A stretch of 32,172 nt of DNA from Jimgerdemannia flammicorona (taxonomy: Eukaryota): positions 62,001 to 94,172 of the forward strand of contig RBNJ01000001.1 in NCBI GenBank assembly GCA_003990765.1. The letters run 5' to 3'. Each line of letters starts with the position of its first letter. The first letter of the stretch is position 1. Under the pieces are notes generated by a model. It saw only the letters and a list, made by a program, of their open reading frames with translations, did not search any database and was not told the origin of the DNA. A program made the position numbers and the translations under genes. Shown in pieces: positions 1 to 32,172 of this stretch.

Positions 1-1
1 G

Positions 2-127
2 GACAGCAAGCCATTAGTAATCACCCCCCCTACCACTGAAGAGGATGGCAACAACACTGAGAAAGACTCTCTACCTTTCTCTCCCCTGGTTCTCAATTTC
101 CGAATCAATGAGGATATTGATTTCTAA
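2..127 (+). CDS. C-terminal tail of the 3' accessory ORF of a family-B Ty3/Gypsy copy (B2); the rest lies upstream of the window
   Basis: Open frame DSKPLVITPPTTEEDGNNTEKDSLPFSPLVLNFRINEDIDF* ends at the PPT. It matches the minus-strand tail at 3266-3350 (ENSLPSSPLVLNF*INENIEF*). Confidence 0.6.
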   Translation, partial: DSKPLVITPPTTEEDGNNTEKDSLPFSPLVLNFRINEDIDF

Positions 128-138
128 GAGAAGTAGGA
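126..138 (+). other. Polypurine tract of element B2
   Basis: AAGAGAAGTAGGA lies immediately before the TGTAAT LTR start. Confidence 0.7.
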
Positions 139-2490: not shown

Positions 2491-3261
2491 TGTAATAACT
2501 CTTATTTCTACCACTTTATTATCCTTTGAATAATTAGAGAAATAAGGTATTACTTAGAGACTTAGTACACAAGTGTATCAAGAAGCCTTCAGTGTGAGGA
2601 AGTACTCACTTGAAAATAGTTATAGCAGCAGTATCCTTCTTATTAATTATGATTATAAGGAACTTATTTCTTACTGTATACTAATTAAATTCATCTTGAA
2701 ATTCAGATTCAATAGGTGGGTTTACTTAAATCTTTGTGATTTATATACTAATCTCAGTTCTGGCAGAGTTAGCTAGACTTCTGAAGTTTAGTCAGAAATA
2801 CTAGAGTTACTTAGATGTCATTACTAAGACTCAGGAGAATATGTATGTATAGAGAGAAACTTGATTTTCATATCAAGGACTGAACTAAAACTGTCTTTAT
2901 TTTAAATAGAAACTAGGGGATATTTATATAAGTTGGTTCATGATTTCTGACTAAGTATAAGTGACTAATTTGATAATTATGATGAGGTTTATAATTGTAA
3001 CCTTTGTTAGATAGTTTGTGATCAGGAATACTTTATAATCAGAATCTCTATTGTTAGGCAATGATCAGTTGCTGTGACACTGATTACTGTGGTACTAATT
3101 ACTGGGAATAAGTTGAATATTATTTATTTATATCATTCATATCATTTATTATGTTCATTATTCATATGTTATATATTATACTTAATCATAATATCATTAC
3201 TAAGTCATGTAATTGCTCATTATATGTTGCATCTTGTCTGTTTGTTCATTCATTCTATTAT
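2491..3261 (-). repeat. 3' LTR of element B
   Basis: Direct repeat of 19988-20761. The + strand begins TGTAATAACT. A small deletion affects the PPT-side terminus. Confidence 0.85.
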
Positions 3262-3265
3262 CTCC

Positions 3266-4093
3266 TTAAAACTCAATATTCTCATTAATTCAAAAATTGA
3301 GAACTAGGGGAGAAGAGGGTAGAGAATTCTCCTCCTCATCTAATTCAGTATTATTGCCACTCTACCAGAGGTTGGGAGGTGGTTGCTAATAGCTCAATAT
3401 CAAGAATAGAGAAGTCAATGAAGTCTACAAATAGTTCTTGAATTGGTATAGATAGTGGAGTAGGAGTTCTCTATCTAATATGGTTGGGGTCATCTAGGTA
3501 TAGTTCTTACTTGTTATGTCTAGAGATATCTATTCAGATAGATAGTCCTTCAAAGAGGTCAGAGAGACCCTAGAGCCATTGATCTGGATTATCATTCAGA
3601 ATAGAGCTCTAATGGGGTTTGCAGTCAGTGAACTTGAGAATAATTCAGGAGTTGGCTTCTTGAGTGATCTTGATCTCCAGTTCATCAATCTCAAAGTCTA
3701 GAAGTCCTTTAGTTGTATATAATTGAGATTGGAGATTACAAAAGGTATATGGTGTATAATTTGATAGATCTTCTTGGTTAGTCTTTGCTTATTTCTATCT
3801 AGGTTAGTTCAGTCTGAGATCTGGTCAGTGGGTAGGCCTTTTACATACTGAAGAAGTTGGTGATCAATTTCATATTTATGCCAGATTTCTAGATAGCTGA
3901 TAGCAAGATAGACCCTTTCTATGACTTCACGATGATTAAGAACATACTGTCCTAGGTCCTGGCTGGTGAGGTTAAGGACCTCAGAGTGATAGTTCCTTTC
4001 TTAGATAGCAACTTAGATATATCCAAAGAGACAGTCAACTTGGCTTGAGAGGGGCTGGCTATAGCAAACTGTTTAGCAATAGGTAGTAGATAT
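3266..4093 (-). pseudogene. Decayed ~275-codon accessory ORF between pol and PPT, homologous to the LTR ORF of element A
   Basis: Manual translation SQDLGQYVLNHREVIERVYLAISYLEIWHKYEID...KKIYQIIHHIPF/ISNLNYIQLKDF/IDELEIKITQEANS/ILNDNPDQWL*GLSDLFEGLSI aligns co-linearly with 9432-10247. The start appears mutated ATG>ATA. Stops and frameshifts are present. Confidence 0.8.
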
Positions 4094-4160: not shown

Positions 4161-4168
4161 TATTTATA
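4161..4168 (-). promoter_or_regulatory. Putative internal TATA box for B's accessory ORF
   Basis: Minus-strand TATAAATA(CTC) about 70 nt upstream of the inferred start. Confidence 0.45.
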
Positions 4169-8900: not shown

Positions 8901-9185
8901 CTGATTGTTAGATTCATCTGATCTTTTTCTCTTCTCAAAGTATCTAACTGAGATATATCCTGCCTTCTTGCAAATAAAGTACAATCCTTTTTCACAAAGC
9001 TGCTTCTTTTTGTTCTCATTGAGGGATCTTAGTTCTTAGGGATTTTGCTGGTTCCTTTGGTCATTCCTTTGATCATTTCTTTAATTATTTCTTCTAATGA
9101 GATTCCTCTTATCTTGGTTATCCTTCTCATGTTCTGAATTTTATGAGGTCTATACAGTAAGGATTTTACAGACTCTTCTTTATAC
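8900..9185 (-). pseudogene. gag: C-terminal part of B gag (decayed zinc knuckle), cut by element A
   Basis: Minus-strand LYFICKKAGYIS is a decayed CCHC knuckle. The sequence joins 18384+ across the ATAT TSD. Confidence 0.7.
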
Positions 9186-9307
9186 ATATTGTAATGATGA
9201 CCCCAGAATGATGACATCAGCACAGGAGATAGCCTTTCCTTGCAAACTACCAGATCAGAGCATAAGAAGATCATATGGTATATAAGATGAGCAATGATGA
9301 CCAACTG

Positions 9308-9351
9308 TGAGTCATTGTGACCACAGTACAAGCATCCTGAAGAATATAAAA
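9308..9351 (+). promoter_or_regulatory. Putative promoter of the LTR ORF: TGAGTCA (AP-1/Gcn4-type site) plus TATAAAA
   Basis: TGAGTCA at 9308-9314 and TATAAAA at 9345-9351, about 80 nt upstream of ATG 9432. Both are kept in the 3' LTR (16860-16866 and 16897-16903). Confidence 0.5.
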
Positions 9352-9431
9352 GAAGGATCAAGGAACTGCAGTAGCAGTAACCAACAAGAACCACCAATCC
9401 CAAAATAGCTCAAAGACTTACTACAAACAAA

Positions 9432-10247
9432 ATGCCTACTGCCCACCAAACCTCAAGGTCAAGGAATCACCAAGGTATCTTAGTCAAGAAAAGGATGTTT
9501 CAAGACATCAGAAGAGCCATGGGGACCTGCTCAAGAAGGACTCCTAGTGTCCACCATACTGCAGACCCTTATCACTTCATTCTCTATCACCATGAAATGG
9601 AAACAAGGATCACTATTGCTACTGAATGCCTCCAAATGTGGCAGGAGTATGAAATAGGAAACCTCCTCTGCTGGGAGTTCCCACAGGCCAGCACCCAAGA
9701 GCTACAAGATGCCACTCCCATAGATATACATGAAATGAGGACAGCTAAGAAGATCCATCAGATCTTCAGGCATGTACCATGGTCAATCCCCAACTTGGAG
9801 TATGTCAGAGTCTCAGACTTCAGAGATCTATCATCCCACTATATCAATGCACTAGAAGCCAGGGTGGCTACAGAAGCCCAGTCCACTATCACCCTCAACA
9901 GCAAAGAAGTAGAAGACTTCTGGCATCCTATCCTTCAGGACAACCCAGACCAATTCCTGCAAGGATTGATCTCAGTATTCCAAGGCCCAAGCATCCAGGT
10001 TAGACCTCTCCAAGATCTCACATTTGTTCTCTATTTTGTAGAAGAGAACCTCATAGACTGGAGAGCTCCAGATCTTGTTTCCAATTTCCCCACCACAGCT
10101 GGACATGATGACATCATTGGTGATAATATCATCTCATGCAACATCGAAGTACATGAAACACATGACCTACATGACAAATTTGCGGATCTCATCTCCTTCA
10201 GTGATGATGATGATGAAGCCTCCATGATCCTGAACTTTCTACTCTAA
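9432..10247 (+). CDS. LTR (U3)-encoded uncharacterised protein, 271 aa, acidic C-terminus
   Basis: Longest ORF in the window. Open in both LTRs, with a homologue in element B. Confidence 0.85.
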   Translation: MPTAHQTSRSRNHQGILVKKRMFQDIRRAMGTCSRRTPSVHHTADPYHFILYHHEMETRITIATECLQMWQEYEIGNLLCWEFPQASTQELQDATPIDIHEMRTAKKIHQIFRHVPWSIPNLEYVRVSDFRDLSSHYINALEARVATEAQSTITLNSKEVEDFWHPILQDNPDQFLQGLISVFQGPSIQVRPLQDLTFVLYFVEENLIDWRAPDLVSNFPTTAGHDDIIGDNIISCNIEVHETHDLHDKFADLISFSDDDDEASMILNFLL

Positions 10248-10255
10248 AAGTTCTT

Positions 10256-10383
10256 TGTTATACTGGATAATGCCAGTACTGGTATTCTCATGTAACACTG
10301 GATTATGCCAGCACTGGTATTCTGAGGTAATGCGAAATTGTTCCAGCACTGATATTTTGATGTGACACTAAATAATGCCAGCA
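10256..10383 (+). repeat. 35-bp tandem repeat in 5' LTR of A (~3.7 units)
   Basis: Unit approximately TGTAACACTGGATAATGCCAGCACTGGTATTCTCA, with internal palindrome AATGCCAG-CA-CTGGTATT. Confidence 0.9.
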
Positions 10384-10488
10384 TCCTGAACCTGTACAAC
10401 CATCAGTGCTAGCCCTGGAACTTAGTAGTTTTAGTTATTGAAATTTATATTTAGCTTTATATCATAGCAACTATTGAATTATATTTTG

Positions 10489-10521
10489 TATAAATACTCC
10501 TCTTATTTCCTCTGAAATAAA
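10489..10521 (+). promoter_or_regulatory. LTR core promoter TATAAATA and polyA signal AATAAA
   Basis: TATAAATA at 10489-10496 and AATAAA at 10516-10521. Equivalent modules occur in the other LTR families. Confidence 0.65.
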
Positions 10522-10727
10522 GTCAGTCAAGTTCACTTATACACACTTCCTTGCAAGCCATTTAAGAGATAACAAGACAGTTAAAGATAAGAAGTTTGAG
10601 AACTATAAGACCTTAAGAAGGTACTCCAATAAGAGCTTGCTTATAACAAACTTGAGTTAGTCTAAGAGATATACCTTGAAGAGAATCTGGTATATTTGAA
10701 GGACTCAGTGACCACTATGTGACAACT

Positions 10728-10745
10728 TAGTGCCCATTGGCTGGT
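10728..10745 (+). other. Primer-binding site of A (tRNA not assigned)
   Basis: TAGTGCCCATTGGCTGGT 3 nt after the LTR end. Element E has TGGTATCCATTGGCTGGT at 29238. Confidence 0.75.
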
Positions 10746-10850
10746 GATTCAAGATGAATCCCTCACTTTCAAGCTGAAAAACAAACAACCTCCACAACAA
10801 CTACCCTGACTACAAGAGTTACCCCTGTAAGAATTCAAGACAAGATAGAA

Positions 10851-11650
10851 ATGCACCCCCCCACATTCTATGAATATACTACTGAAGAGTCAATTCTGAC
10901 CTTCATTGAAGACTTTGAACAATTTGCCACCATACAAGCCCTTGGTATGGATGCTCAATTGGCCCTTCTACCAGTCAGCCTCAGAGGACCTGCCAGAGAC
11001 AAGTTCAATGTAGCTACTATTGCTGATGCTGGTGCAGCCAAACTTACCAACATGAAGGTCTTCCTCAGAACAATATATTATACCAAAGAGATCAAGCAAG
11101 CTCTCAAGGATCAACTCAATACTATCTGCCAGAGACTTAGTGAAGATCCCAACTCATTCTATACCCAAATTTGCCACCAGATTGTCTTGGCTGGCTATGA
11201 TAACCACCTTAAGGAACAAATAGCAGATTCAACCTTCCTCAAAGAAGTTCACTCTGAAATTGCCCTAGCAATCCAGTCTACCCCAGCTGCACTGACCCTT
11301 GATCAGAAAGTGGTCTTTGTACAGAGATATTGGACTGCCAGACATCCTACCAAACACTCAATAGAGAAAATAACTGGTATCAAGATGGAGCCATCAAAGC
11401 CAACTAGTATCATACCTGCCACAGTCATAAATAGACAACCAACCCCACCTATCCCCAAGACAGCCAAAGCTGACCCAGTGGAGGAACTTGTCAAGCAGTT
11501 TGCCGAGATAACTGCACACCTTGGTGATATTGTTAGAGAAGTCCAAAGTGCTAACAGGAGACCAGTATAGAGATTTGTAGCTGCTACAGAAGAATGCAAT
11601 ATCACATGCTTCAGATGTGGAGAAGAAGGCCACTATGCAAAGAGTTGCAT
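10851..11650 (+). pseudogene. gag: gag of element A with CCHC zinc knuckle
   Basis: 239-aa open capsid-like frame, then a TAG, then in-frame CFRCGEEGHYAKSC. Confidence 0.85.
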
Positions 11651-12936
11651 GACCAAAACAAGATGTAAAGCCCAACCAAGCAATGCTAGCAGAACCAGAG
11701 AAAAACCAATACAGTAGTCATTGAGGAGATTGGTGATACTGATGATGAAGAATACTATGAGGAGCTTGAATTCTACCCTGCTACCGAAGGTACCAGAACC
11801 TGGTCCAAGCCCTATGATAAGAAGAGCAACAGTAAGCCAGTTGGAAGACCAAAGAAGACCCCAGCTATCACTATTCAAAGTAAGACCCAACCCGAGGAGA
11901 TTGATCAAGACATGGAGTTAGATGAAGCTGTTTGCCAAATTATTGAAGGCACTATTCTAGTCTCAGGAGAAAGCAAAAGCAAGAAGGAACAGAAGTTGCA
12001 CAAGACCAAGATCCACCAGTATGACATCTACAAGGACCTCAAGAAATAGAAGGTCAATGCCACTTTTGGACAGCTAGCTGAAGTCCCTGCCTTTAGACAG
12101 CAGTTGAGAGTAGGACTTGCAACTATGCCAAGAATCAAGAGTACAAGATTGTAGAAGCTCACAATGCACAAGAAGAATCCAAGAACTTAGGTAAAGAATC
12201 TGAAGACCAGCGCAAGACATCAGCCTATACCCCCTGCCAGATCGAAGACTATATCTTTGATGCCATTATTGATACTGGTACTAGAGGATGCCTCATGAGC
12301 AAGAAGGCAATTGACTACCTAGGTTGAGACATTGAAGAGTCCACCAAGATGGTCTATGTTACAGCAGATGGTATACAAGCTACCCCCCTTGGCAAAATCT
12401 GAGAAGTCCCCATCAAGATAGGAGGAGCTACCATTCCAGTAGACATGATTGTTACAAGTACCACCAACTATGACATCCTCATTGGCAACCAATGGCTTCA
12501 CAAGACCAAGGCCATTATTGACCTCAATGCCCAGAAGATGCAGATCAACTACAGAGGAAGAAAGGTATAAGTCTCTATCAATGTCCACAAAGGAGTTCTA
12601 CCAGACATGGAGGAAGGAGATGAAGAAGACACAGAGGTCTTCATGCACTTGGTGAACAAGAACAAGAACAAGAGCAAGACACCTAAGCTCATAGATGAGT
12701 AGTGGTACAACAAGATCATTGATGGATATGTCCCTCAAGGAAGATGCCCCCATAGTACTAGGATGTACTGCTCCAAACACCTGAATGACTGCTGGTTCTG
12801 TATCAGTGAAGTCAGGAAAATCCGCCAACAGAAACATGAGCAAGAAGCCACCGAAGCAAAAAGGAAAGCTGAAGAAGATGACCAGCCCCCAGAGCTTCAA
12901 GCTGATAGTGATGATGAGGAGAAACAAGAATCAGAC

Positions 12937-13670
12937 ATCACCCTCAAAGTCAAGAAGTTTCACCCTGAAGTCAAGATCCCAGAATACAAGACTGAAGGAG
13001 CTATAGGAATAGACCTTGCTAGCATTCAAGATGCTACCCTTGAACCACAGACCACCACCCTACTTGGCACTGGAATTGGAGTCAAGCTGCCAGAAACCAT
13101 GCCAGAATTATCAAGACCAGGAGCAGTCTGGCCAAAAGTGAAATCTCAGTTGAAGGAGGAGTAATTGATCCTGATTATACTGGCAAGATCTTCCTCATAG
13201 TCAGAAATCACAACTACACCACTCCCTTCAATTTTTTTTTTTTTTTTTTATAGTCACTCAGACTCTCCCTTTATTACATCCCATCTATCCCATATAAGTA
13301 CAGTGAACTCACCCCCTAATCTATCCCCCTAGGGAGGCCCCTCCCCCCTACTCCTTCTTGATGAAACACCACTCTATTGAATACAATTCCTACCCTCCCA
13401 CCACTCTGTTTACATATCCTTGTCACCAAACCCCGTCATCGCCCCTCTGAAGGCCCCCAACCTATCCACCATCCAGTCATCAGATCTCCTGACAGCTCCT
13501 CCCACCTTAAAACCTTCTTCTGCAGGCTCAACACACCACCCCCTTTGAAGTCAAGAAGCATGACAGGATTGGCCAGATGCTGATCCATGAAATCAAGAAG
13601 CCCAAGATTATAGAAGCCATCGAACTCATCAAGACCAAGAGAGGAGAACAAGGCTTTGGATCTACTGGAA
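12937..13670 (+). pseudogene. dut: dUTPase domain of A, split by a LINE fragment
   Basis: Motifs AIGIDL, RSSLA, GVIDPDYTG, DRIGQML and RGEQGFGSTG, in canonical trimeric dUTPase order. Confidence 0.92.
13232..13532 (-). mobile_element. 5'-truncated LINE insertion (301 bp) with polyA tail and 16-bp TSD
   Basis: T18 run. TSD ACACCACTCCCTTCAA (13216-13231) versus ACACCACCCCCTTTGA (13533-13548). Encodes LSLQKKVLRWEELSGDLMTGWW..., homologous to the LINE C-terminus at ~2100-2300. Confidence 0.9.
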
Positions 13671-16600
13671 GAGAGGTCTATGCCACCACCAAGATTACCA
13701 AACTTGAGCACAAGAAAGATAAGGACCAGAACAAGTACACATATACCATTGGAGAAAACTTTCCCCTGGAGAAACAACTTCTCAAGATCCTGCATCAGAA
13801 CAAAGAAGTACTTGCTACAGACTTTAGGGATATCCACAATCAAGAACCCAAGTACTAACATAAAGTTGACACTAGTGATACCAAGCCTATCTACCAGAAA
13901 GCCAGACCTATACCACCTGCCTACAGAGAGTGGCTGCAAGCTGAACTCAATGAAATAGAAGAAGCCAGAATCATTAAGCAAGCTATCAGCCCCTGGGCCT
14001 CACCCATTGTTCTAGCCCTGAAGAAAGGAAGCAAGCCTGGAGAGTTTGTACCAAGACTCTGCATTGACTATAGGAAACTCAATGCCATCACCAAGAAGGA
14101 TAGGCAGCCCTTGCCAAATATTTAAGAAATTCTCACTACTCTTGGAAGTGAAGCCAAATACTACACTACCTTGGATCTGTTCTCAGGCTTCTATCAGATT
14201 GGTCTCACTCAAGATACCAGTGAGAAATCAGCCTTCATCACACCTGATACCACCTATATCTATCTGTGAATACCATTTGGAATGTGCAGTGCTCCAGCAA
14301 GTTTCCAGCAAATGATAAACAGAGTCTTCAGCAACAAGATTGGAAAATAGCTCTTTGTCTATGTTGATGATGTGATCATCTTCAGCAACACTGTATGGGA
14401 ACATATCAATTACATACAGCTAGCCCTCAAGAGGCTCAAGGAGCATGGCCTCTACATCAAGCTCAAGAAATGCAAGTTTGCAGCTCAAGAAATTGCCTAC
14501 CTAGGACACCTCATCAACCAGACTGGAATCCACACAGACCCCATGAAGATCGAGGCTGTTGCAGCCTACCCAAGACCCAGAACAACCACAGAAGTCTACA
14601 CCTTCCTTGGACTGGCCAGCTACTACAGAAGATTCATCAAAGGATACTCCAACATTGCAGCACCTATCTATGAGCTACTGAAGAAGGAGACCAAATTCAA
14701 ATAGACCAAGGAGTACCAAGAAACCTTCAATGAACTCAAGACCAGGTTGACCCAAGCATCCATCCTCAGAAGACCAGACTGGAACCTAGAATTCATCCTG
14801 CAGATAGATGTGAGTGCTATAGAATTTGGAGCAGTTCTAGCTCAGAAGAAAGATGGACATGAATATGTCATCTCTTATGCAAGCCAAGGTACCTGCAGAG
14901 CAGAACAGAACTATAAGTCATGCAAGCTTGAATGCTTAGCAGTAGTCTGGGCAGTAGACAAGTTCCACTACTACCTAGCTGGGAAATACTTCACTTCAAA
15001 CAGACCATTCTGCTCTTGCCTGGCTATTCCACACTCTGAACCCCAAAGGAATATATGCCAGATGGATCTACAGGCTACAAGAGTATGACTGTACTGTTAA
15101 GCACTGCTCAGAAAAGACCAATACCAATGCTGATGCACTCTCAAGGACACTCTGAAACACCCCCATCAAGACTATTCAACATGAATAAGGAGCTATACTA
15201 TGGATTAATTAGCTATCTTAGGCAGCGGAAGATGCCCAACCACCTCGAACCCTGGACAATCACCATTATCAACTGGACTTAGAAATAGTTTGAATTAGAC
15301 AACACTACACTCAGAAAAGAAGGAAAGCTAGTAATACCTGAACACAAGAAGTATCAAGTAATGAAGGAAGTACACAAGCAAGGACACTTAGGAGGAATCA
15401 ACACATATGACAAGGTAAGAAGAACTATGTAGTAGCCCAAGATGGAAGAAGATCTGCGCCAATTTGTCAAAAGGTATGACAAGTGCCAAAAACAGAAACA
15501 AGATCAGCAAGACCAGGTATCTGGGTCATCAAGAATTGAGCCTATCTCCTTTCACCACATTGCAATGGATATCATTGAACTACTACCAGTGACACTATCA
15601 GGAAACCACTATATTATAGTTATTGTAGACCTCTTCACCAAATAGATAGAGGCAGGAGCATTATAAGAAGTCAATGTCCTCTCTATAGTTGACTTCCTAT
15701 ACCGAGAAATCATCTGTCACTACAAGACACCAAAGCAAATCACAACAGACTGTAGAATGGAATTTGTCAATGGATTCTATGAGATAATATATCAGAAATA
15801 CAAGATCCAGCACATCAAGACCACTGTGTACCACTCTTAAGAAAATGGACAGACAGCAAGAACCAATAAGACCTTTAAGAATATTCTAGCGAAGATCTCA
15901 GACACATATGAGAATTGGGATAACTATCTCCCAACTACCCTCTCTGTCCTATGAGACATATGGTCACAGAGTACACATTTTACCCCAAGAGAGCTGCTCT
16001 TTGGAGAAGAAGATTCTGATGGAACCTCAGCCACAAATATAGACCTAACTTGGAGATGGGTTGATGCAGAAATCCAGAGACTACACCAAATCAGGAAGAA
16101 GGCTGAAGATTACATCACCAAGTTACAAGCACTGATAAAGAAGAATGTGGAAAAGAATCACAAGGCCCTAGAATCCATCTAAATCAGAGAAAAGGTTCTA
16201 CTATATCAAAATATGGTAGAAGCCTCATGGTCATGAAAACTAGAGCCCAAATGGGAAGGACCCTTCTATGTGCAAGATATAAAGGGAACTATCTTCTGGC
16301 TTAGAAAAATCTCAGAGACCATACTGCCTACCATGGTACATAGGAACAGACTCAAGAAGTACCATGAACCTATACAAGAGAAGTAAAATGTGATGACTGC
16401 CCATGAGGTTCTAGTCTGTGAATTGTAACAGCATGTCCCATGACTAGCAGGCTATCTGTCTGGACCATTCTCTAAGGGATATGGCACTGGCAACTACTCA
16501 TCTGTGAGACTTTCGAAGTCAGAGGAGTTTGAACCATCAACTGATTGGTCAAGATCAGAATCAGGCCCTTGCTCTAAATGAAGGAAGTGACTCTTCACCA

Positions 16601-16731
16601 TCACACCAAAATACAAAGGGAAGATGCCAGCCCATAAACACCAGTTTTTGACCCCTTGCCAGAGATTATAGGATCAGCAAATTTTTCAGGACTGGACTAA
16701 TGAATAAGAATGCTCAGGAAGATCCTTATTC

Positions 16732-16741
16732 AGGAGGAAGA
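16732..16741 (+). other. Polypurine tract of A
   Basis: AGGAGGAAGA abuts the TGTAAT start of the 3' LTR. Confidence 0.8.
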
Positions 16742-16983
16742 TGTAATGGTGACCTCAGAATGATGACATCAGCACAGGAGACAGCCTTTCCTTGCAAGCC
16801 ACCAGATCAGAGCACAAGAAGATCATATGGCATATGAGATGAGCAATGATGACCAACTGTGAGTCATTGTGACCATAGTACAAGCATCCTGAAGAATATA
16901 AAAGAAGGATCAAGGAACCACAGTAGCAGTAACCAACAAGAACCACTAATCCCAAAATAGCTCAAAGACTTACCACAAACAAA

Positions 16984-17832
16984 ATACCTGCTGCCTGCCA
17001 AACCTCAAGGTCAAGGAATCACCAAGGTATCTTGGTCAAGGAAAGGATGTTCCAAGACATCAGAAGAGCCATGGGGACCTGCTCAAGAAGGACTCCTAGT
17101 GTCCACCTGGGTACTGCAGACCCTTATCAGTTCATTCTCTACTACTGTGAAATGGAAACAAGGATCACCATTGCTACCGAATGCCTCCAAATGTGGCAGG
17201 AGTATGAAATAGGAAACCTCCTCTGCCAGGAGTACGAAATAGGAAACCTCCTCTGCCAGGAGTTCCCACAGACCAGCACCCAAGAGCTACAAGATACCAC
17301 TCCTATGGATATATATGAAATGAGGACAGCTAAGAAGATCCATCAGATCTTCAGGCATGCACCATGGTTAATCCCCAACTTGGAGTATGTCAGAGTCTCA
17401 GACTTCAGAGACCTATCATCCTGTCATATCAATGCACTAGAAGCCAGGGTGGCTACAGAAGCCCAGTCCACTATCACCCTCAATAGTGAAGAAGTAGAAG
17501 ACTTCTGGCATCCTATCCTTCAGAACAACCCAGACCAATTCCTGCAAGGATTGATCTCAGTATTCCAAGGCCCAAGCATCCAGGTTAGACCTCCCCAAGA
17601 CCCCACATTTGTTCCCTATTTTATGGAAGAGAACCTCATAGACTGGAGAGCTCTAGATCTTGTTCCTGATTTCCCCACCACAGCTGGACGTGATGACATC
17701 ATCAGCAATGACGTCATCCCATGTGACATCAAAATACATGAAATGTGCAATCTGTATAACAAATTCGCAGATCTCATCTCCTTTAGTGATGATGATGATG
17801 AAGCTCTCATAATTCTGAACTTTCTGCTCTAA
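16984..17832 (+). CDS. Second copy of the LTR-encoded protein (first ATG mutated to ATA, frame still open)
   Basis: Co-linear with 9432-10247. Carries a tandem duplication of QEYEIGNLLC and has no internal stop. Confidence 0.75.
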   Translation: MPAACQTSRSRNHQGILVKERMFQDIRRAMGTCSRRTPSVHLGTADPYQFILYYCEMETRITIATECLQMWQEYEIGNLLCQEYEIGNLLCQEFPQTSTQELQDTTPMDIYEMRTAKKIHQIFRHAPWLIPNLEYVRVSDFRDLSSCHINALEARVATEAQSTITLNSEEVEDFWHPILQNNPDQFLQGLISVFQGPSIQVRPPQDPTFVPYFMEENLIDWRALDLVPDFPTTAGRDDIISNDVIPCDIKIHEMCNLYNKFADLISFSDDDDEALIILNFLL

Positions 17833-17840
17833 AAGTTCTT

Positions 17841-18038
17841 TATTACACTGGATAATGCCAGCACTGGTATTCTCATATAATACTAAATAATACCAGCACC
17901 AGTATTCTCATGTAACACTGGATAATGCCAGTACTGGTATTCTCATATAACACTGGATAATGCCAGCACTGGTATTCTGAGGTGACGCAAAATTGTTCTA
18001 TCACCAGCATTTTGATGTAACACTAAATAATGCCAGCA
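17841..18038 (+). repeat. 35-bp tandem repeat in 3' LTR of A (~5.7 units)
   Basis: Units start at 17841, 17876, 17911, 17946, 17981 and 18016. Confidence 0.9.
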
Positions 18039-18383
18039 TCCTGAACCTGTACAACCATCAGTACCAGCCCTGGAATTTAGTAGTTTTAGTTATTGGAATT
18101 TATATTTAGCTTTATATCTTAGCAACCATTGAATTATATTTTGTATAAATACCCCTCTTATTTCCTCTGAAATAAAGTCAGTCAAGTTCACTTATATACA
18201 CTTCCTTGCAAGCCATCTAAGAGATAACAAGACAGTTAAAGATAAGAAGTTTGAGGACTATAAGACCTTGGGAAGGCACTCCAATAAGAACTTGCTTATA
18301 ACAAACTTAAGTTAGTCTAAGAGATACACCTTGAAGAGAATCTGACATATTTGAAGGACTCAGCAACCACTATATGACAATAT

Positions 18384-19099
18384 CTAAGCAAAGTATAATA
18401 AGTAGTGGAGATATTCTTAAAGAAGGTCTTATTCCTTAATCTTCTGAGTGAGTCAGTCTGGTAGTGCTATAGAGAGATGGCTGGCTCTGATACCATTGAT
18501 GGCCAAATTGTTTTCCTAGTAGATAAGTCTCACAGTCTTGAGATAGGCATCTATCCTGGTGGTAAAGATTTCTAGATCCTCTTCACTATTCTTATAGAAC
18601 TTCATCTAGGCTAGTTTGTTCCAAGTTTCTTATATATAGGCTGTATTTTAGAATTTGGTCAGTAGCAGAGCCTTGAGTTCTGAGTCTACTATATAGTTAC
18701 CTCAACCTGGTCTGTTATAGGCAAGTACTTATCCAGTGACTTGAGGGCAGTCTTCTCAGATTACTGAGTGTTTTTCTAAGATACACCAAAACTTGACTGC
18801 TATTCTAGTAAAGAATGTTACTACTGTTTCCACTTGTACTGCTGATGTAGCAAACAGCCATTAAAGGGTATTATCTTGGTTATTGATAAGTATTCCAGTA
18901 GGTACTTGGTTATTATTCATTAATTTACTTAGTATCCTATATATACTATTTTGATAAAGGTTTCAATATTGCTGTTTTTTCAACTAAAAGTGGAAATTCT
19001 CAAGGTCTTGGTTGGTTTGTTCTGTTCAGCAATTTGTTCTACTATGCCTGCTAGTATGGCTGGCTAGGTAGTCAGAGCTGCAATATTGGTATCTACCAT
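18384..19099 (-). pseudogene. gag: Core gag of element B (N-terminal part)
   Basis: MVDTNIAALTT...; similar to D gag MAN*QILDLTAQ... and shares the NG(I/T)RA motif. Confidence 0.65.
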
Positions 19100-19987: not shown

Positions 19988-20761
19988 TATAATAACTCTT
20001 ATTTTTACTCCTCTCTTATTCTTTAGATAATTAGAAAAACAAGGTATTACTTAGAGACTTAGTATATAAGTATACTAAGAAGCCTTTAGTATAAGAAAGT
20101 GCTTACTTAAAAGTAGTTATAGTGGTAGTATCCTTCTTATTAACCATAGTTATAAGGGACTTATTTTTTGCTATGTATCAACTAAATTTGTCTTGAAATT
20201 CAGGTTCAATAAGTGGGTTTACTTAAATCTTTATAATTTATATATTAGTCTCAGTTCTAGCAGAAGTTAGCTAGACTTCTGAAGTTTAGTTAGAAATACT
20301 AGAGTCTACTTAGATGTCATTACTAAGACTCAGGAGAATGTATGTATGTGGAAGGGGGCTTGATTCTCATATTAAGAACTAAACTAAAACTGTCTTTATT
20401 TTAGATAGAAACTAGAGGATATTTATACAAGTTAGTTTATAATTTCTGACTAAGTATAAGTGACTAATTTGGTAACTATAGTGAGGTTTATAATTGTGAC
20501 CTTTGTTAGGTAGTTTGTAATCAAAAATACTTTATGATCAGGACCTCTATCATTAGATAATGATTAGTTGCTATAGTGCTGATTACTGCAGTGCTAATTA
20601 CTGGAGATAAGCTGAATATCATTTATTTATATTATTCATATCATTTATTATATTTATTGTTTATATATTATATATTGTACTTGATTATGACATTATTACT
20701 GAGTTATATAATTACTTATCATATGTCATGTCTTGTCTATTTATTTATTCATTCTATTATA
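19988..20761 (-). repeat. 5' LTR of element B (774 bp)
   Basis: Repeat of 2491-3261. Termini decayed TGTA>TATA. Followed by the TSD AAAAG. Confidence 0.88.
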
Positions 20762-22886: not shown

Positions 22887-23180
22887 TAATATCTCCATGA
22901 ATATTCATCCAAATTCAACGAAACAAAGTGTGTGGTATTCGCCTGATTAGGGGCTTTCTAGCAATATAGGTTTCATTGAAATTGGACAAGTATTTATGGA
23001 GGAAATTAACAAAATGTCCATAGGTCATAGTTGAGCCACATTCTGTAAAAGGTTTTGTTGAATTTCTCCACAAATACTAGTCCAGATTAAATGAAATCTA
23101 TACTGCTGGAAAGCCCTTAATCAGGCGAATACAGCACACTTTGTTTTGTTGAATTTAGATGAATATTCATAAAGATATTA
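22887..23180. mobile_element. MITE/foldback-like long inverted repeat
   Basis: Imperfect arms of ~128 bp (22887-23014 and 23053-23180) around a ~38-bp spacer. TA at both outer ends. Confidence 0.75.
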
Positions 23181-28861: not shown

Positions 28862-29234
28862 TATAGCCTTATAGTTAGCAGTCCTCGATTTCAACATTAT
28901 CTAAATTCTTAGACATTGTCTAAATCTTTAGACATTATCCAAATCGAACATCCTGATTTAGTATAGCATTTAGACATTGTCTAAATGACTCATTTATTAC
29001 TTAGCCACCCTCTCATAGCTAGCAAACTTGTATAAATAACCCAGTATCTTGGAGTGAATAAACCTCAGATCGAAAGTGTTAGAAAAAGAACAAGTAACCG
29101 ATAAAGGGACTTTTGGGATTACCTCTTAAACACATTTGGCCTCAAGGAACTACTGACTCTGGAAGTCAAGAAGACAAGAATTCAAGATAAAGAAATCTGA
29201 TATACTTGCCCATCTTAGCATCTGCTATGTTACA
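28862..29234 (+). repeat. 5' LTR of E (~373 bp; start approximate)
   Basis: Ends TATGTTACA before the PBS. TATAAATA and AATAAA present. Repeated palindrome TTTAGACATTGTCTAAA and ATGACTCAT at 28985. Confidence 0.75.
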
Positions 29235-29333: not shown

Positions 29334-31927
29334 ATGGATATGAGACCCCATGTATTCTATGGATATACGTCCGATGAATCAATCATTACCTTCATTGATG
29401 ATTTCGAGCAGTATGTCACTGTAAGGACCTTAAGTGCAGCACAACAAGTAGTCCTACTCCCTGTAAGCCTCTGAGGCCCAGCAAGAACCACGTTTACTGC
29501 AGCCAATGTACAAGCAGCCAATGATTCAGCAAGAATCATAGCTTTCAAGACCTGGCTCCAAGCAACCTACTATACAGATAAAATCAAACAAGCACTCAAA
29601 GATCAACTAAATACTATCTGCTAAGGAATGTCTGAAGACCTAAACACATTCTATACAAGAATCCGACATCAAATAGTCCTTGCTGACTACCCCAATGCAG
29701 TTCAAGACCAAGTGGCTGAGAATACCTTTATAAAAGGCATTCACCAAGAAATCGCTTTAGCTATTCGATCTACCCCAACACTACTGGACCTGGGACAGAA
29801 GGTTACCTATGCCCAAAGATACTGGACTGCCAGACACCCTCAAGGCCATACAATGGAAAGGATAACCAGAGTAAAAATTGAACAAGCACCAAGAGTCACC
29901 AATACAATCCCAGCTACCATAGTCAACCAGAATACACAACTGCAACCACAAGATCAGAGAAGGGTCGACCCAATGAAGGAACTGGCCAAACAGTTTGCAG
30001 AAATGACTGCATATCTCAGCGATGTAGTCAAAGAGTTCAAGAAGAAGCCAGTATAGAAGTTTGCTGCTATAAATGCAAGATGATCAATAACATACTATAA
30101 CTGTGGAGAAGAAGGCCACTATGCCTCTGAATGTATGATAGAAACCAAGTGAAAGGCCAATCCAAGCAATGCAACCAGGAACCGCAAACAAGCAAACACT
30201 ATCACCTTCAAGGAGATTGGAGAATCTGAGGAAGAGAGGGAGGAATGGGAAGCTTACCCTGCCACCTTAAGCAAGAAGGATGTCCGATCCAGTCCCTACA
30301 AAAGACCTCCAGGCAGACCTCCTAAGAAGGCCCAGATACAAACAAGACAACCAGAAACAGTCATCGAAAAAGAGAACCAGCAGAGCAAAGCTGATCAAGA
30401 TATAGAGCTAGAACAAGATGCTGAACTTGAATGAGCAGTAGAAGATATCATCAGAAACACCACCCCATCAAGTAAAGGGAAGAAGGAGCAGAAATTGCAC
30501 AAGAGCAAGACCTTCAAGTATGATATCTTCAAGAACCTCAAGGACCAAAAGGTCAATGCAACCTTCGGCCAACTAGCAGAAATCCCAACCTTCAGACAAC
30601 AAATGAGGACAGGAATCTCAGATATTGGCAAAGACCAAGGTTACAGAATAATCGAAGCCAACAATGCACAAGAAGATTCAGATGAAGAGAGTGAAGATAA
30701 CCGGAAAACATCAGCCTATGCTACCTGCCAGATCGAGGACTGGGTCTTTGAAGCCATCATTGATATAGGAGCAGGAGGATGTCTCATCACCAAGAAAGCA
30801 GTAGACTATCTAGGCTGGGAGATAGAAGAAGCCACCAAACTGGTATTCATCACAGCTGATGGAATATGAGCAACACCCTTGGGAAAGATCTGAGATGTAC
30901 CAATCAAGTTCGGAGAAGCCACTATCCCTGTAGATGTCATTGTCACTAATGTAACTAACTACGATATCCTCATCAGCAACCAGTGGCTTCACAAAGCCAA
31001 GGCCATGATCAACCTCAGTATACAGAAGATGCAGATCATCTACCAGAGAAAGAAGATCAGAATTTCCATCAATGTCCACAAAGGAGTCTGCCCTGAGATA
31101 GAGGAAGACCAAAAAGAAGAAGCCTATATGGTTACTATGAAGAAAGGAAAAGGCAAGCAATTGACAGAGGAAGAATGGTATACAAGAATCGCAGACAGAT
31201 ATGCCCCACTAGGAAGGTGCCCCATGGTGAAAGAATGTACTGTGCCTAGCACTTGGATCACTGCTACTCTTGTATCATTGAGGTGAAGAAGATCACCAAC
31301 AAGCCAAAGAAGAACCAGGAGGAACCAGAAGATGGACCACCAGAACTATTGGATGACAGTGATGATGAAGAAGACATCACAGTCAAGATATGAAGAATCC
31401 ACCCTGATGCAGTCATGCCACAATACAAATTAGAGAGTGCAGCAGGAATGGACCTATCCACCACAACACACACAATACTTGAACTGCAGACCACTACCAT
31501 TCTAGGAACAGGAATTGAAGTAACCATCCCACCAAACTATGTCAGAATCCTCAAGACAAGGAGCAGCTTGGCAAAGAGCAAAATATCAATAGAAGGAGGA
31601 GTTATTGATTCAGACTACACAGGAGAAATTCTCCTCCTTACCAGGAACCACAACCCAACCATTCCATTTGAAGTAAGGAAGAAGGATTGGCTGGCACAAA
31701 TGCTCATCCTACCTGTCCTTAATCCAAGAATCAAGGAGGTTGCGAACATTAGACAAACTCAGTGAGGAAGGGCTGAATTCGGCTCTACAGGAAGAGGAGT
31801 CCTTGCAGTAACTAAGATCACTGAATTGGAGCACAAGAAGGAGGAAAGCCAAGACAAACACACCTACACAATTGGAAGAAACTTCCCCCTCAGGGAAGAA
31901 TTGCAGAGCCTCTTACATACCTTCGAG
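29334..31927 (+). pseudogene. gag-pol: gag-pol of E (partial)
   Basis: MDMRPHVFYGYTSDESIITFIDDFEQY matches the start of A gag. Knuckle YYNCGEEGHYASEC and a protease motif follow. Confidence 0.88.
31375..31790 (+). pseudogene. dut: dUTPase domain of E
   Basis: SAAGMDL, RSSLA, GVIDSDYTGEI, LAQMLI and FGSTG. Confidence 0.92.
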
Positions 31928-31962
31928 TAGTGCATCGCAACCCGAGCCGACCCGTGTACATA

Positions 31963-32172
31963 TTTAACCCGACCCGGAATTATACGTCACCCGTCTTTAA
32001 CCCGACCCGGAATTATACGTCACCCGTCTTTAACCCGACCCGGAATAATACGTCACCCGTCTTTAACCCGACCCGGAATAATACGTCACCCGTCTTTAAC
32101 CCGACCCGGAATTATACGTCACCCATCTTTAACCCGACCTGGAAACGTACGTCACCCGTCTTTAACCCGACC
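31963..32172. repeat. 33-bp CpG-rich tandem array (6 full units plus a partial unit, runs off the window)
   Basis: Unit TTTAACCCGACCCGGAATTATACGTCACCCGTC at 31963, 31996, 32029, 32062, 32095, 32128 and 32161. Confidence 0.95.

Follow-up and report, generated by a model that had tools for sequence, protein, structure and literature searches.

An orphan accessory gene inside the long terminal repeats of a Ty3/Gypsy retrotransposon of Jimgerdemannia flammicorona

Introduction

Mouse mammary tumour virus (MMTV) carries sag as a complete gene in the U3 region of its betaretroviral long terminal repeat (LTR), so that each provirus has the gene in both of its LTRs; its product, Sag, is a type II membrane glycoprotein of a vertebrate retrovirus. 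To our knowledge, only a few retroviruses are textbook examples of genes contained entirely in an LTR. Foamy viruses have, in addition to the LTR promoter, an internal one ahead of the 3' LTR; from it comes the accessory regulator Tas/Bel1, which bears an acidic activation region and activates the LTR. Here we analyse a gene that lies inside the LTRs of a Ty3/Gypsy retrotransposon, termed element A, in 32,172 nucleotides (nt) of the genome of Jimgerdemannia flammicorona (GenBank assembly GCA_003990765.1, contig RBNJ01000001.1, positions 62,001 to 94,172 of the forward strand). This whole stretch is called the window below, coordinates count from its first letter, and features lie on the plus strand unless noted otherwise. 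The gene itself is referred to as the LTR open reading frame (LTR ORF).

Additional genes of LTR retrotransposons are mostly uncharacterised. According to excerpts of the papers cited in this paragraph, Ty3/Gypsy elements with extra ORFs occur in plants, rotifers, nematodes and fungi: the plant Retand lineage has an additional ORF (PMC11963269), a fungal survey lists 'add. ORF' elements (PMC2864245), and Boty-like elements carry an antisense gene, brtn (PMC8365987). The same fungal survey describes Ty3/Gypsy elements that bear a dUTPase, namely PosPlaTy3-5 of Postia, elements of Phanerochaete and Tmt1 of Tuber (PMC2864245). For Cer1, a Ty3/Gypsy element of C. elegans, the accessory protein CERV is described as required for export of the genomic RNA (PMC10309623).

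Results

An open frame with its own signals in both LTRs of element A

Element A (9190-18380) has TG..CA bounds and a 4-bp target duplication. Its two LTRs, direct repeats that align across 1639 columns, occupy 9190..10724 (5' LTR, 1535 nt) and 16742..18380 (3' LTR, 1639 nt). These limits follow from the TG..CA ends of both repeats, the target-site duplication ATAT (left copy at 9186..9189, equal to the right copy at 18381..18384), the polypurine tract AGGAGGAAGA that adjoins the 3' LTR at 16732..16741, and a stretch resembling a primer-binding site, ACTTAGTGCCCATTGGCTGG, that adjoins the 5' LTR at 10725..10750 and corresponds to ACTTGGTATCCATTGGCTGG in a neighbouring element, C. For further copies of the family, the contigs came from a pair of soil-metagenome runs and from two coded organisms, at 80-99% likeness to the family. 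In a run coded X10, the contigs drop in likeness at 16749, 10725 and 18386, that is, at the LTR edges of element A. Other copies therefore share these LTR ends, and the LTR-resident layout is not unique to the element A insertion.

Within the 5' LTR, the ORF for the protein P0001 runs from ATG to TAA at 9432..10247 and comprises 271 codons, or 288 from stop to stop. The 3' copy (16984..17832) starts with ATA and is stop-free over 282 codons, in a frame that is open across 16933-17832 (299 codons stop to stop). Its greater length is due to an in-frame 30-nt tandem duplication (17197-17263) that supplies ten extra codons, with QEYEIGNLLC repeated, plus one further codon. The longest competing frame lying wholly within either LTR has 84 codons. 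The ORF of the 5' copy is contained entirely in its LTR and lies upstream of the main TATAAAT at 10489, the same type of position as that of MMTV sag.

The ORF is framed by two sets of signals. Upstream, TGAGTCA at 9308..9314, which we take from its consensus to be a putative AP-1/Gcn4-type basic leucine zipper (bZIP) site, precedes the candidate ORF promoter, TATAAAA at 9345..9351, which lies 87 nt ahead of the ATG. Downstream come 35-nt tandem repeats in 3.5 copies (10262..10383) with the palindrome CCAGCACTGG inside, a candidate U3 enhancer that has two additional units in the 3' LTR, then the main TATA box for the genomic RNA, TATAAAT at 10489..10495, and the poly(A) signal AATAAA at 10516..10521. 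At the main TATA box, element C has CTTGTATAAATAAC. A sequence-only reading of the window had claimed stop-free frames of some 270-280 codons in both LTRs, a gene wholly within U3 and upstream of the main TATA box, TGAGTCA and TATAAAA before it, and palindromic repeats, the main TATA box and AATAAA after it; the LTR limits and signal positions bear out each of these claims, with every signal where that reading had placed it.

At position 16986, where the 3' copy reads ATA, nearly all contigs from other copies have the G that restores ATG (402.7 of 462.7 depth in run X1, 22 contigs). Both LTRs have high word depth in the contigs of X10, a small run whose RNA nature is guessed, and the interior is mostly bare (9000-18500). 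This coverage was used neither for nor against expression or solo LTRs, as bare stretches in contigs prove nothing.

Relatives and coding constraint

The relatives of the LTR ORF comprise 21 proteins in nine clusters, all on metagenome contigs. They make up an orphan family, small in relation to the billions of proteins that were searched. Among 5.8 billion clusters, a word-indexed search gave 6 relatives out of 166 scored candidates; these six clusters have 16 member sequences, all on short contigs. An exhaustive profile search covering 1.84 billion representatives gave 5 related clusters, and no relatives were found among viral contigs. Fourteen aligned family sequences have 29-87% identity to P0001 and fall into about four subfamilies, with open frames kept in all four at identities as low as 29%. 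A search of metagenome contigs for further copies returned one contig, L001, and the gag of element A had a single relative, similar in length, and no longer ones. From these copy and gag searches, the family is absent from annotated protein sets.

Compared with L001 over 270 codons, the 5' copy has a proportion of replacement differences (pN) of 0.286, a proportion of silent differences (pS) of 0.710 and a ratio of replacement to silent substitution rates (dN/dS) of 0.165; for the 3' copy, dN/dS is 0.174. When the first 225 alignment columns are taken by themselves, dN/dS is 0.156 (5' copy) and 0.12 (3' copy). In that block, the 5' copy and L001 differ at 77, 49 and 106 sites in codon positions 1, 2 and 3, respectively. 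L001 also retains both TATA boxes, as GAATATAAAAG upstream of the ORF, identical to the sequence in element A, and as TGTATAAATAC downstream, despite saturated silent sites, and for this reason both boxes look functional. Intact homologous frames elsewhere, together with a dN/dS of 0.12-0.17 against one of them, place the frame beyond chance. Judged from these comparisons, the LTR ORF appears to be constrained between lineages at the level of the protein and not of the DNA, and the frame is almost certainly a real LTR-resident accessory gene. The proposals of the sequence-only reading that the gene is protein-coding, and that it has a TATA box of its own, thereby gain evidence beyond the window.

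Decay of the two copies in the window

The LTR pair of element A shows 123 aligned differences, 119 of them transitions of the C-to-T type. Thirty are TG/CA pairs, in which an ancestral CpG decayed on opposite strands, and 8 are single CpG losses, so that 38 of the 123 are attributable to CpG decay; the other 81 transitions occurred at 0.10 (CpA) and 0.08 (CpC) per site and copy versus 0.004 at CpT. The ratio of observed to expected CpG is 0.00-0.11 in eight of nine window regions as well as in the ORF of L001, and 0.35 in element C. Classical repeat-induced point mutation of the Neurospora type, for which TpA/ApT exceeds about 0.89 and (CpA+TpG)/(ApC+GpT) falls below about 1.03, was rejected as the cause, element A having values of 0.51-0.81 and 1.50-1.82.

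A dN/dS of 0.45 between the two ORF copies by the Nei-Gojobori method (NG86) was not accepted as evidence of constraint: 75 of the 77 differences are transitions, and a context-aware comparison shows no constraint, with 25 of 270 replacement and 16 of 184 silent site-copies mutated (P 0.64). In addition, the 3' copy has lost its ATG. On the other hand, none of 48 stop-prone CpA/CpC site-copies was mutated versus 41 of 454 others (Fisher one-sided P 0.0135), 4.70 stops would be expected across the two copies with a probability of 0.0071 of finding none, and all three indels in the LTR frames are multiples of three. An initial stop simulation with P ~0.003 was discarded, as it had counted TG/CA double differences, which are old CpGs, as CpA events. 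Both window copies are relics of a dead insertion that drift neutrally. We treat the absence of stops as luck rather than maintenance, given the lack of amino-acid constraint, the lost ATG and the fact that the window was picked for its open frames.

The interior of element A has decayed visibly: a minimum-cost frame path over 10851-16400 meets at least 26 stops (12 TAG, 8 TAA and 6 TGA) and 4 frame changes. In other family copies, one base is inserted at 11702, one at 12125 and two at 14994. These sites are close to three of the four places where element A changes frame, which agrees with element A being a dead member of a family that also has intact ones. The sequence-only reading had set this broken pol beside the open ORF. 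The broken state of pol was borne out, whereas maintenance of both ORF copies, as the contrast might suggest, was not: replacement and silent rates are equal, the 3' ATG is lost and the stop absence is an event of roughly 1 in 100. The dN/dS comparisons it had proposed gave a divided answer, the value lying well below 1 against L001, with no constraint between the two window copies.

The same gene outside the LTR

Ty3/Gypsy elements lie nested in the window, and A is inserted in an older minus-strand element, B, recognised by its reverse transcriptase (RT) at 7161-6976 and by LTRs at 2493-3261 and 19990-20760 with 84% identity, of which the former (minus strand) is the 3' LTR. Between the pol of B and this 3' LTR, tblastn detects a decayed homologue of the LTR ORF (3290..4093, minus strand) that is 50-53% identical to the proteins P0019 and P0020 and broken by one frameshift and at least 8 in-frame stops. 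The homologue terminates in ...PLVLNF and a stop, 28 nt short of where the B LTRs begin matching, and has a TATAAAT (4162..4168, minus strand) 75 nt upstream of its start-equivalent codon, compared with 87 nt in element A. A third, B-type copy is cut by the window edge: at 1..130, its C-terminal end ...PLVLNFRINEDIDF and a stop are left, with a B-type LTR at ~68-902. As homologues lie outside the LTR in a neighbouring element, the gene is not bound to the LTR, and the 'LTR gene' appears to be one of the layouts in which a more widespread 3' accessory cassette occurs.

Element C, a sister of A with 66% nucleotide identity over gag to dUTPase, extends from ~28880 past the window end and lies within a fourth element, D. 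Its 5' LTR of ~350 nt (28880..29234, start approximate) has repeats, a TATA box and AATAAA, and is without trace of an ORF homologue.

Several further observations concern these LTRs. That of element C contains repeated palindromic units (TTAGACATTGTCTAAAT-like) and TGACTCA before its TATA box; the repeat differs from the 35-nt unit of element A but holds the same relative position. TTAGTCA-type motifs (ATTAGTCAC, ACTTAGTCAG) stand just before the TATA box in all three B-type LTRs (2493-3325, 68-902, 19990-20760), and a similar motif, CTAGTTAGTCAC, occurs at ~1100-1200 of L001. From the consensus, these resemble bZIP sites of the AP-1/Yap-like kind.

The predicted protein

P0001 consists of a basic, arginine-rich N-terminus (QTSRSRNH, RRAMGTCSRR), a conserved core (residues ~45-215) that in the family is predicted to be mostly helical, a variable acidic region and the tail SDDDDEASMILNFLL, the acidic and hydrophobic character of which had already been described from the letters alone. 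Two hydrophobic motifs near the C-terminus, DLISF and LNF, are conserved, and the tail is kept in all subfamilies that reach that far.

Like the sequence-only reading, which did not recognise the protein family, our searches matched no described family, env included. Pfam had no significant match to the ORF, to either copy or to any of 14 family members; the top one was ATG5_HBR, with an E value of 0.028 in 3 of the 14. The family profile had 0 matches among PDB sequences at E up to 10, and the ESM Atlas held nothing usable for P0001, with scores of at most 0.88 for P0020. Foldseek found no PDB match at E <=0.001 for the better of two AlphaFold models, which means little given how poor the model is. 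Three specific origins were considered and dismissed. A gag-derived duplicate was rejected on an hhalign probability of 0.1 against the gag of element A. For env, there was no family match, no hydrophobic span by eye and no structural match (with the poor model). A relation to MMTV Sag was set aside because there was no match in Pfam or among PDB sequences and, again by eye, no hydrophobic span, leaving a likeness of position only.

Other features of element A and the window

The interior of element A carries gag with a CCHC zinc knuckle (10851..11714; PF00098, E 1.9e-07), an aspartic protease fragment (12403..12567; PF08284, E 7e-07), a dUTPase domain spread over three frames (12703..13855; PF00692, E 8.8e-04, 1.3e-06 and 6.9e-07), RT and RNase H (14126..15085; PF00078, E 3.7e-11, and PF17919, E 9.4e-30) and an integrase region with a zinc-binding domain (15289..16383; PF17921, E 5.8e-05). 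This is the Ty3/Gypsy (Metaviridae) order of gag, protease, RT, RNase H and integrase, with a dUTPase in addition between protease and RT. Element C has a dUTPase in the same place (31394-31762), and its copy is intact (PF00692, E 2.3e-20). Pfam matched no chromodomain, the mark of the chromovirus branch at the integrase C-terminus, in the scanned segments of element A, the final 350 nt ahead of the polypurine tract being inspected by eye only.

Two repeats complete the inventory. Within element C, 31959-32172 is a tandem repeat with a 66-nt period, one frame of which reads repeated TRPGIIRHPSL. At 22887-23180 lies an imperfect palindrome of 294 nt, 80% identical to its own reverse complement, C-rich (GC skew ~-0.35) and without family matches.

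Discussion

Leaving aside what the protein does, we consider it probable that a promoter-plus-ORF cassette belongs to the 3' end of a dUTPase-bearing Ty3/Gypsy clade and was absorbed into U3 in lineage A. The cassette would consist of a TATA box 75-87 nt upstream of an ORF of ~270-340 codons, in sense with gag-pol. In element B and in the third copy at the window start, it would follow pol and precede the 3' LTR. Lineage A would have its polypurine tract, and hence the U3 boundary, upstream of the cassette, such that reverse transcription would place gene and promoter into both LTRs. The remainder of the A LTR, with repeats, main TATA box, AATAAA and U5 (~475 nt), would then be the counterpart of a short LTR such as that of element C, and the U3 boundary would have shifted in lineage A. 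A transcript starting at the upstream TATA box, running through the ORF and using the AATAAA of its own LTR for polyadenylation would yield a message of ~1.1 kb within one LTR, its length and ends being estimated from the positions of these signals.

As to function, the conserved acidic/hydrophobic tail, the candidate separate promoter and the repeats between ORF and main TATA box suggest a regulatory role, and by analogy with foamy-virus Tas the protein may act in the nucleus to stimulate the promoters of its own element, a proposal we favour among the possible roles and put forward tentatively. A more far-reaching version, in which every LTR of the family, solo LTRs included, would be a stand-alone, self-promoted regulatory gene that supplies a trans-acting factor family-wide, be it Tas-like or counter-silencing, is more doubtful still.

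Several points weigh against these interpretations. The dN/dS values rest on a single outgroup, L001, with silent sites saturated, and replacement and silent sites of the two window copies changed alike in the context-aware comparison. Expression of the LTR ORF is predicted from sequence signals, and the main TATAAAT and AATAAA are only 27 nt apart, so that the poly(A) signal could precede or follow the start of the genomic RNA. Neither a DNA-binding nor any other domain is recognisable by Pfam, among PDB sequences or in the ESM Atlas, and both AlphaFold models are poor (mean pLDDT, the predicted local distance difference test, 39.4 and 46.8), leaving the fold unreadable. The 3' end of element C lies beyond the window, so that C could carry an internal copy of the gene or lack one, and the boundary shift is unrooted, so that the gene could have moved into the LTR or out of it.

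Other accounts of the same gene draw in part on the same observations. Its basic N-terminus and conserved DLISF and LNF motifs would also suit a post-transcriptional helper in the manner of Rev of human immunodeficiency virus (HIV) or CERV of Cer1, with the arginine-rich N-terminus binding the element RNA and the C-terminal leucine-rich/hydrophobic motifs recruiting export or packaging. A Ty3/Gypsy precedent is at hand in CERV, which, in the excerpt of the Cer1 paper, is needed for export of the genomic RNA (PMC10309623). However, these motifs were read by eye, and the account presupposes splice sites that would make export help necessary; we regard such a helper as unlikely. Less likely again would be a counter-defence factor, acting in trans and from solo LTRs too, against silencing of repeats by cytosine methylation, repeat-induced mutation or RNA interference. 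The CpG depletion in eight of the nine regions and the preponderance of transitions between the LTRs indicate that the host attacks repeats, and a gene in both LTRs would increase dosage, but Pfam revealed no similarity to known suppressors, the window copies were mutated regardless, and the argument is purely circumstantial.

The two remaining accounts bear on why the frame is open at all. If the ORF were a passenger, captured or arisen de novo, without a role in the life cycle, its conservation would have to stem from overlapping cis-acting U3 sequences or from young samples. The small orphan family, the lack of a confident fold and the neutral drift of the window copies would agree with this, yet the low dN/dS and the third-position peak against L001 indicate constraint on the protein, the gene has been kept at two positions relative to the LTR, each time with its own TATA box, and open frames persist in four subfamilies down to 29% identity. 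We consider a mere passenger very improbable. Very improbable, too, is active maintenance of the window frames after insertion, through host domestication or selection in place. It would account for the spared stop-prone sites, for the indels in multiples of three and for open frames next to an interior with its many stops. Against it stand the equal rates of replacement and silent change and the lost 3' ATG, and selection would need to act on two redundant copies; moreover, a P near 0.01 is weak in a window chosen for its open frames. We return to the 3' cassette as the explanation of the arrangement, with the Tas-like role as a tentative addition.

Should the more far-reaching version of the regulatory proposal be correct, the LTR ORF system would be a retrotransposon counterpart of the regulatory circuits of complex retroviruses, built from an undescribed protein fold. 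The occurrence of the cassette inside the LTR and just outside it provides a natural before-and-after pair for a U3 region absorbing a gene. Were the LTR to work as a transcription unit of its own, solo LTRs could be dispersed copies of a gene for a trans-acting factor instead of inert scars, and the LTR load of such genomes would need a different interpretation.

How unusual the arrangement is can be gauged from the literature and from the systems introduced above. As the sequence-only reading had supposed, an LTR-resident gene is out of the ordinary for Ty3/Gypsy elements: in the full-text literature, a search for an ORF inside a Ty3/Gypsy LTR returned none and essentially MMTV only, which is not proof of absence, as most subscription journals are outside its coverage. 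The LTR ORF shares with MMTV sag that both are whole genes within U3; it differs from Sag in having no long hydrophobic stretch by eye and no sequence match, and in being carried by a Ty3/Gypsy element. It resembles the Tas/Bel1 system in its two conserved TATA boxes and its acidic, hydrophobic tail, whereas in lineage A both the candidate second promoter and the gene are inside the LTR and no DNA-binding domain is recognised. Like CERV, as far as the excerpt describes it, the product of the LTR ORF is an accessory protein other than env, encoded by a Ty3/Gypsy element, and it would have a regulatory role; unlike the LTR ORF, CERV is the product of a spliced mRNA and not LTR-resident. Compared by description, PosPlaTy3-5 has its dUTPase between protease and RT, as do elements A and C, in the part of the survey drawn on here (PMC2864245). 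Taken with the soil-metagenome contigs, this dUTPase position points tentatively to a fungal host; a truffle (Tuber) was considered in this respect, since Tmt1 is reported to bear a dUTPase (PMC2864245). In the corresponding excerpts, the additional ORFs of plant and fungal elements are likewise lineage-specific and located around pol and the LTRs, but they are internal, and brtn is antisense, whereas the LTR ORF is in sense, has its own TATA box and, in lineage A, lies within the LTR. An LTR-resident orphan accessory gene is thus a real, if unusual, arrangement.

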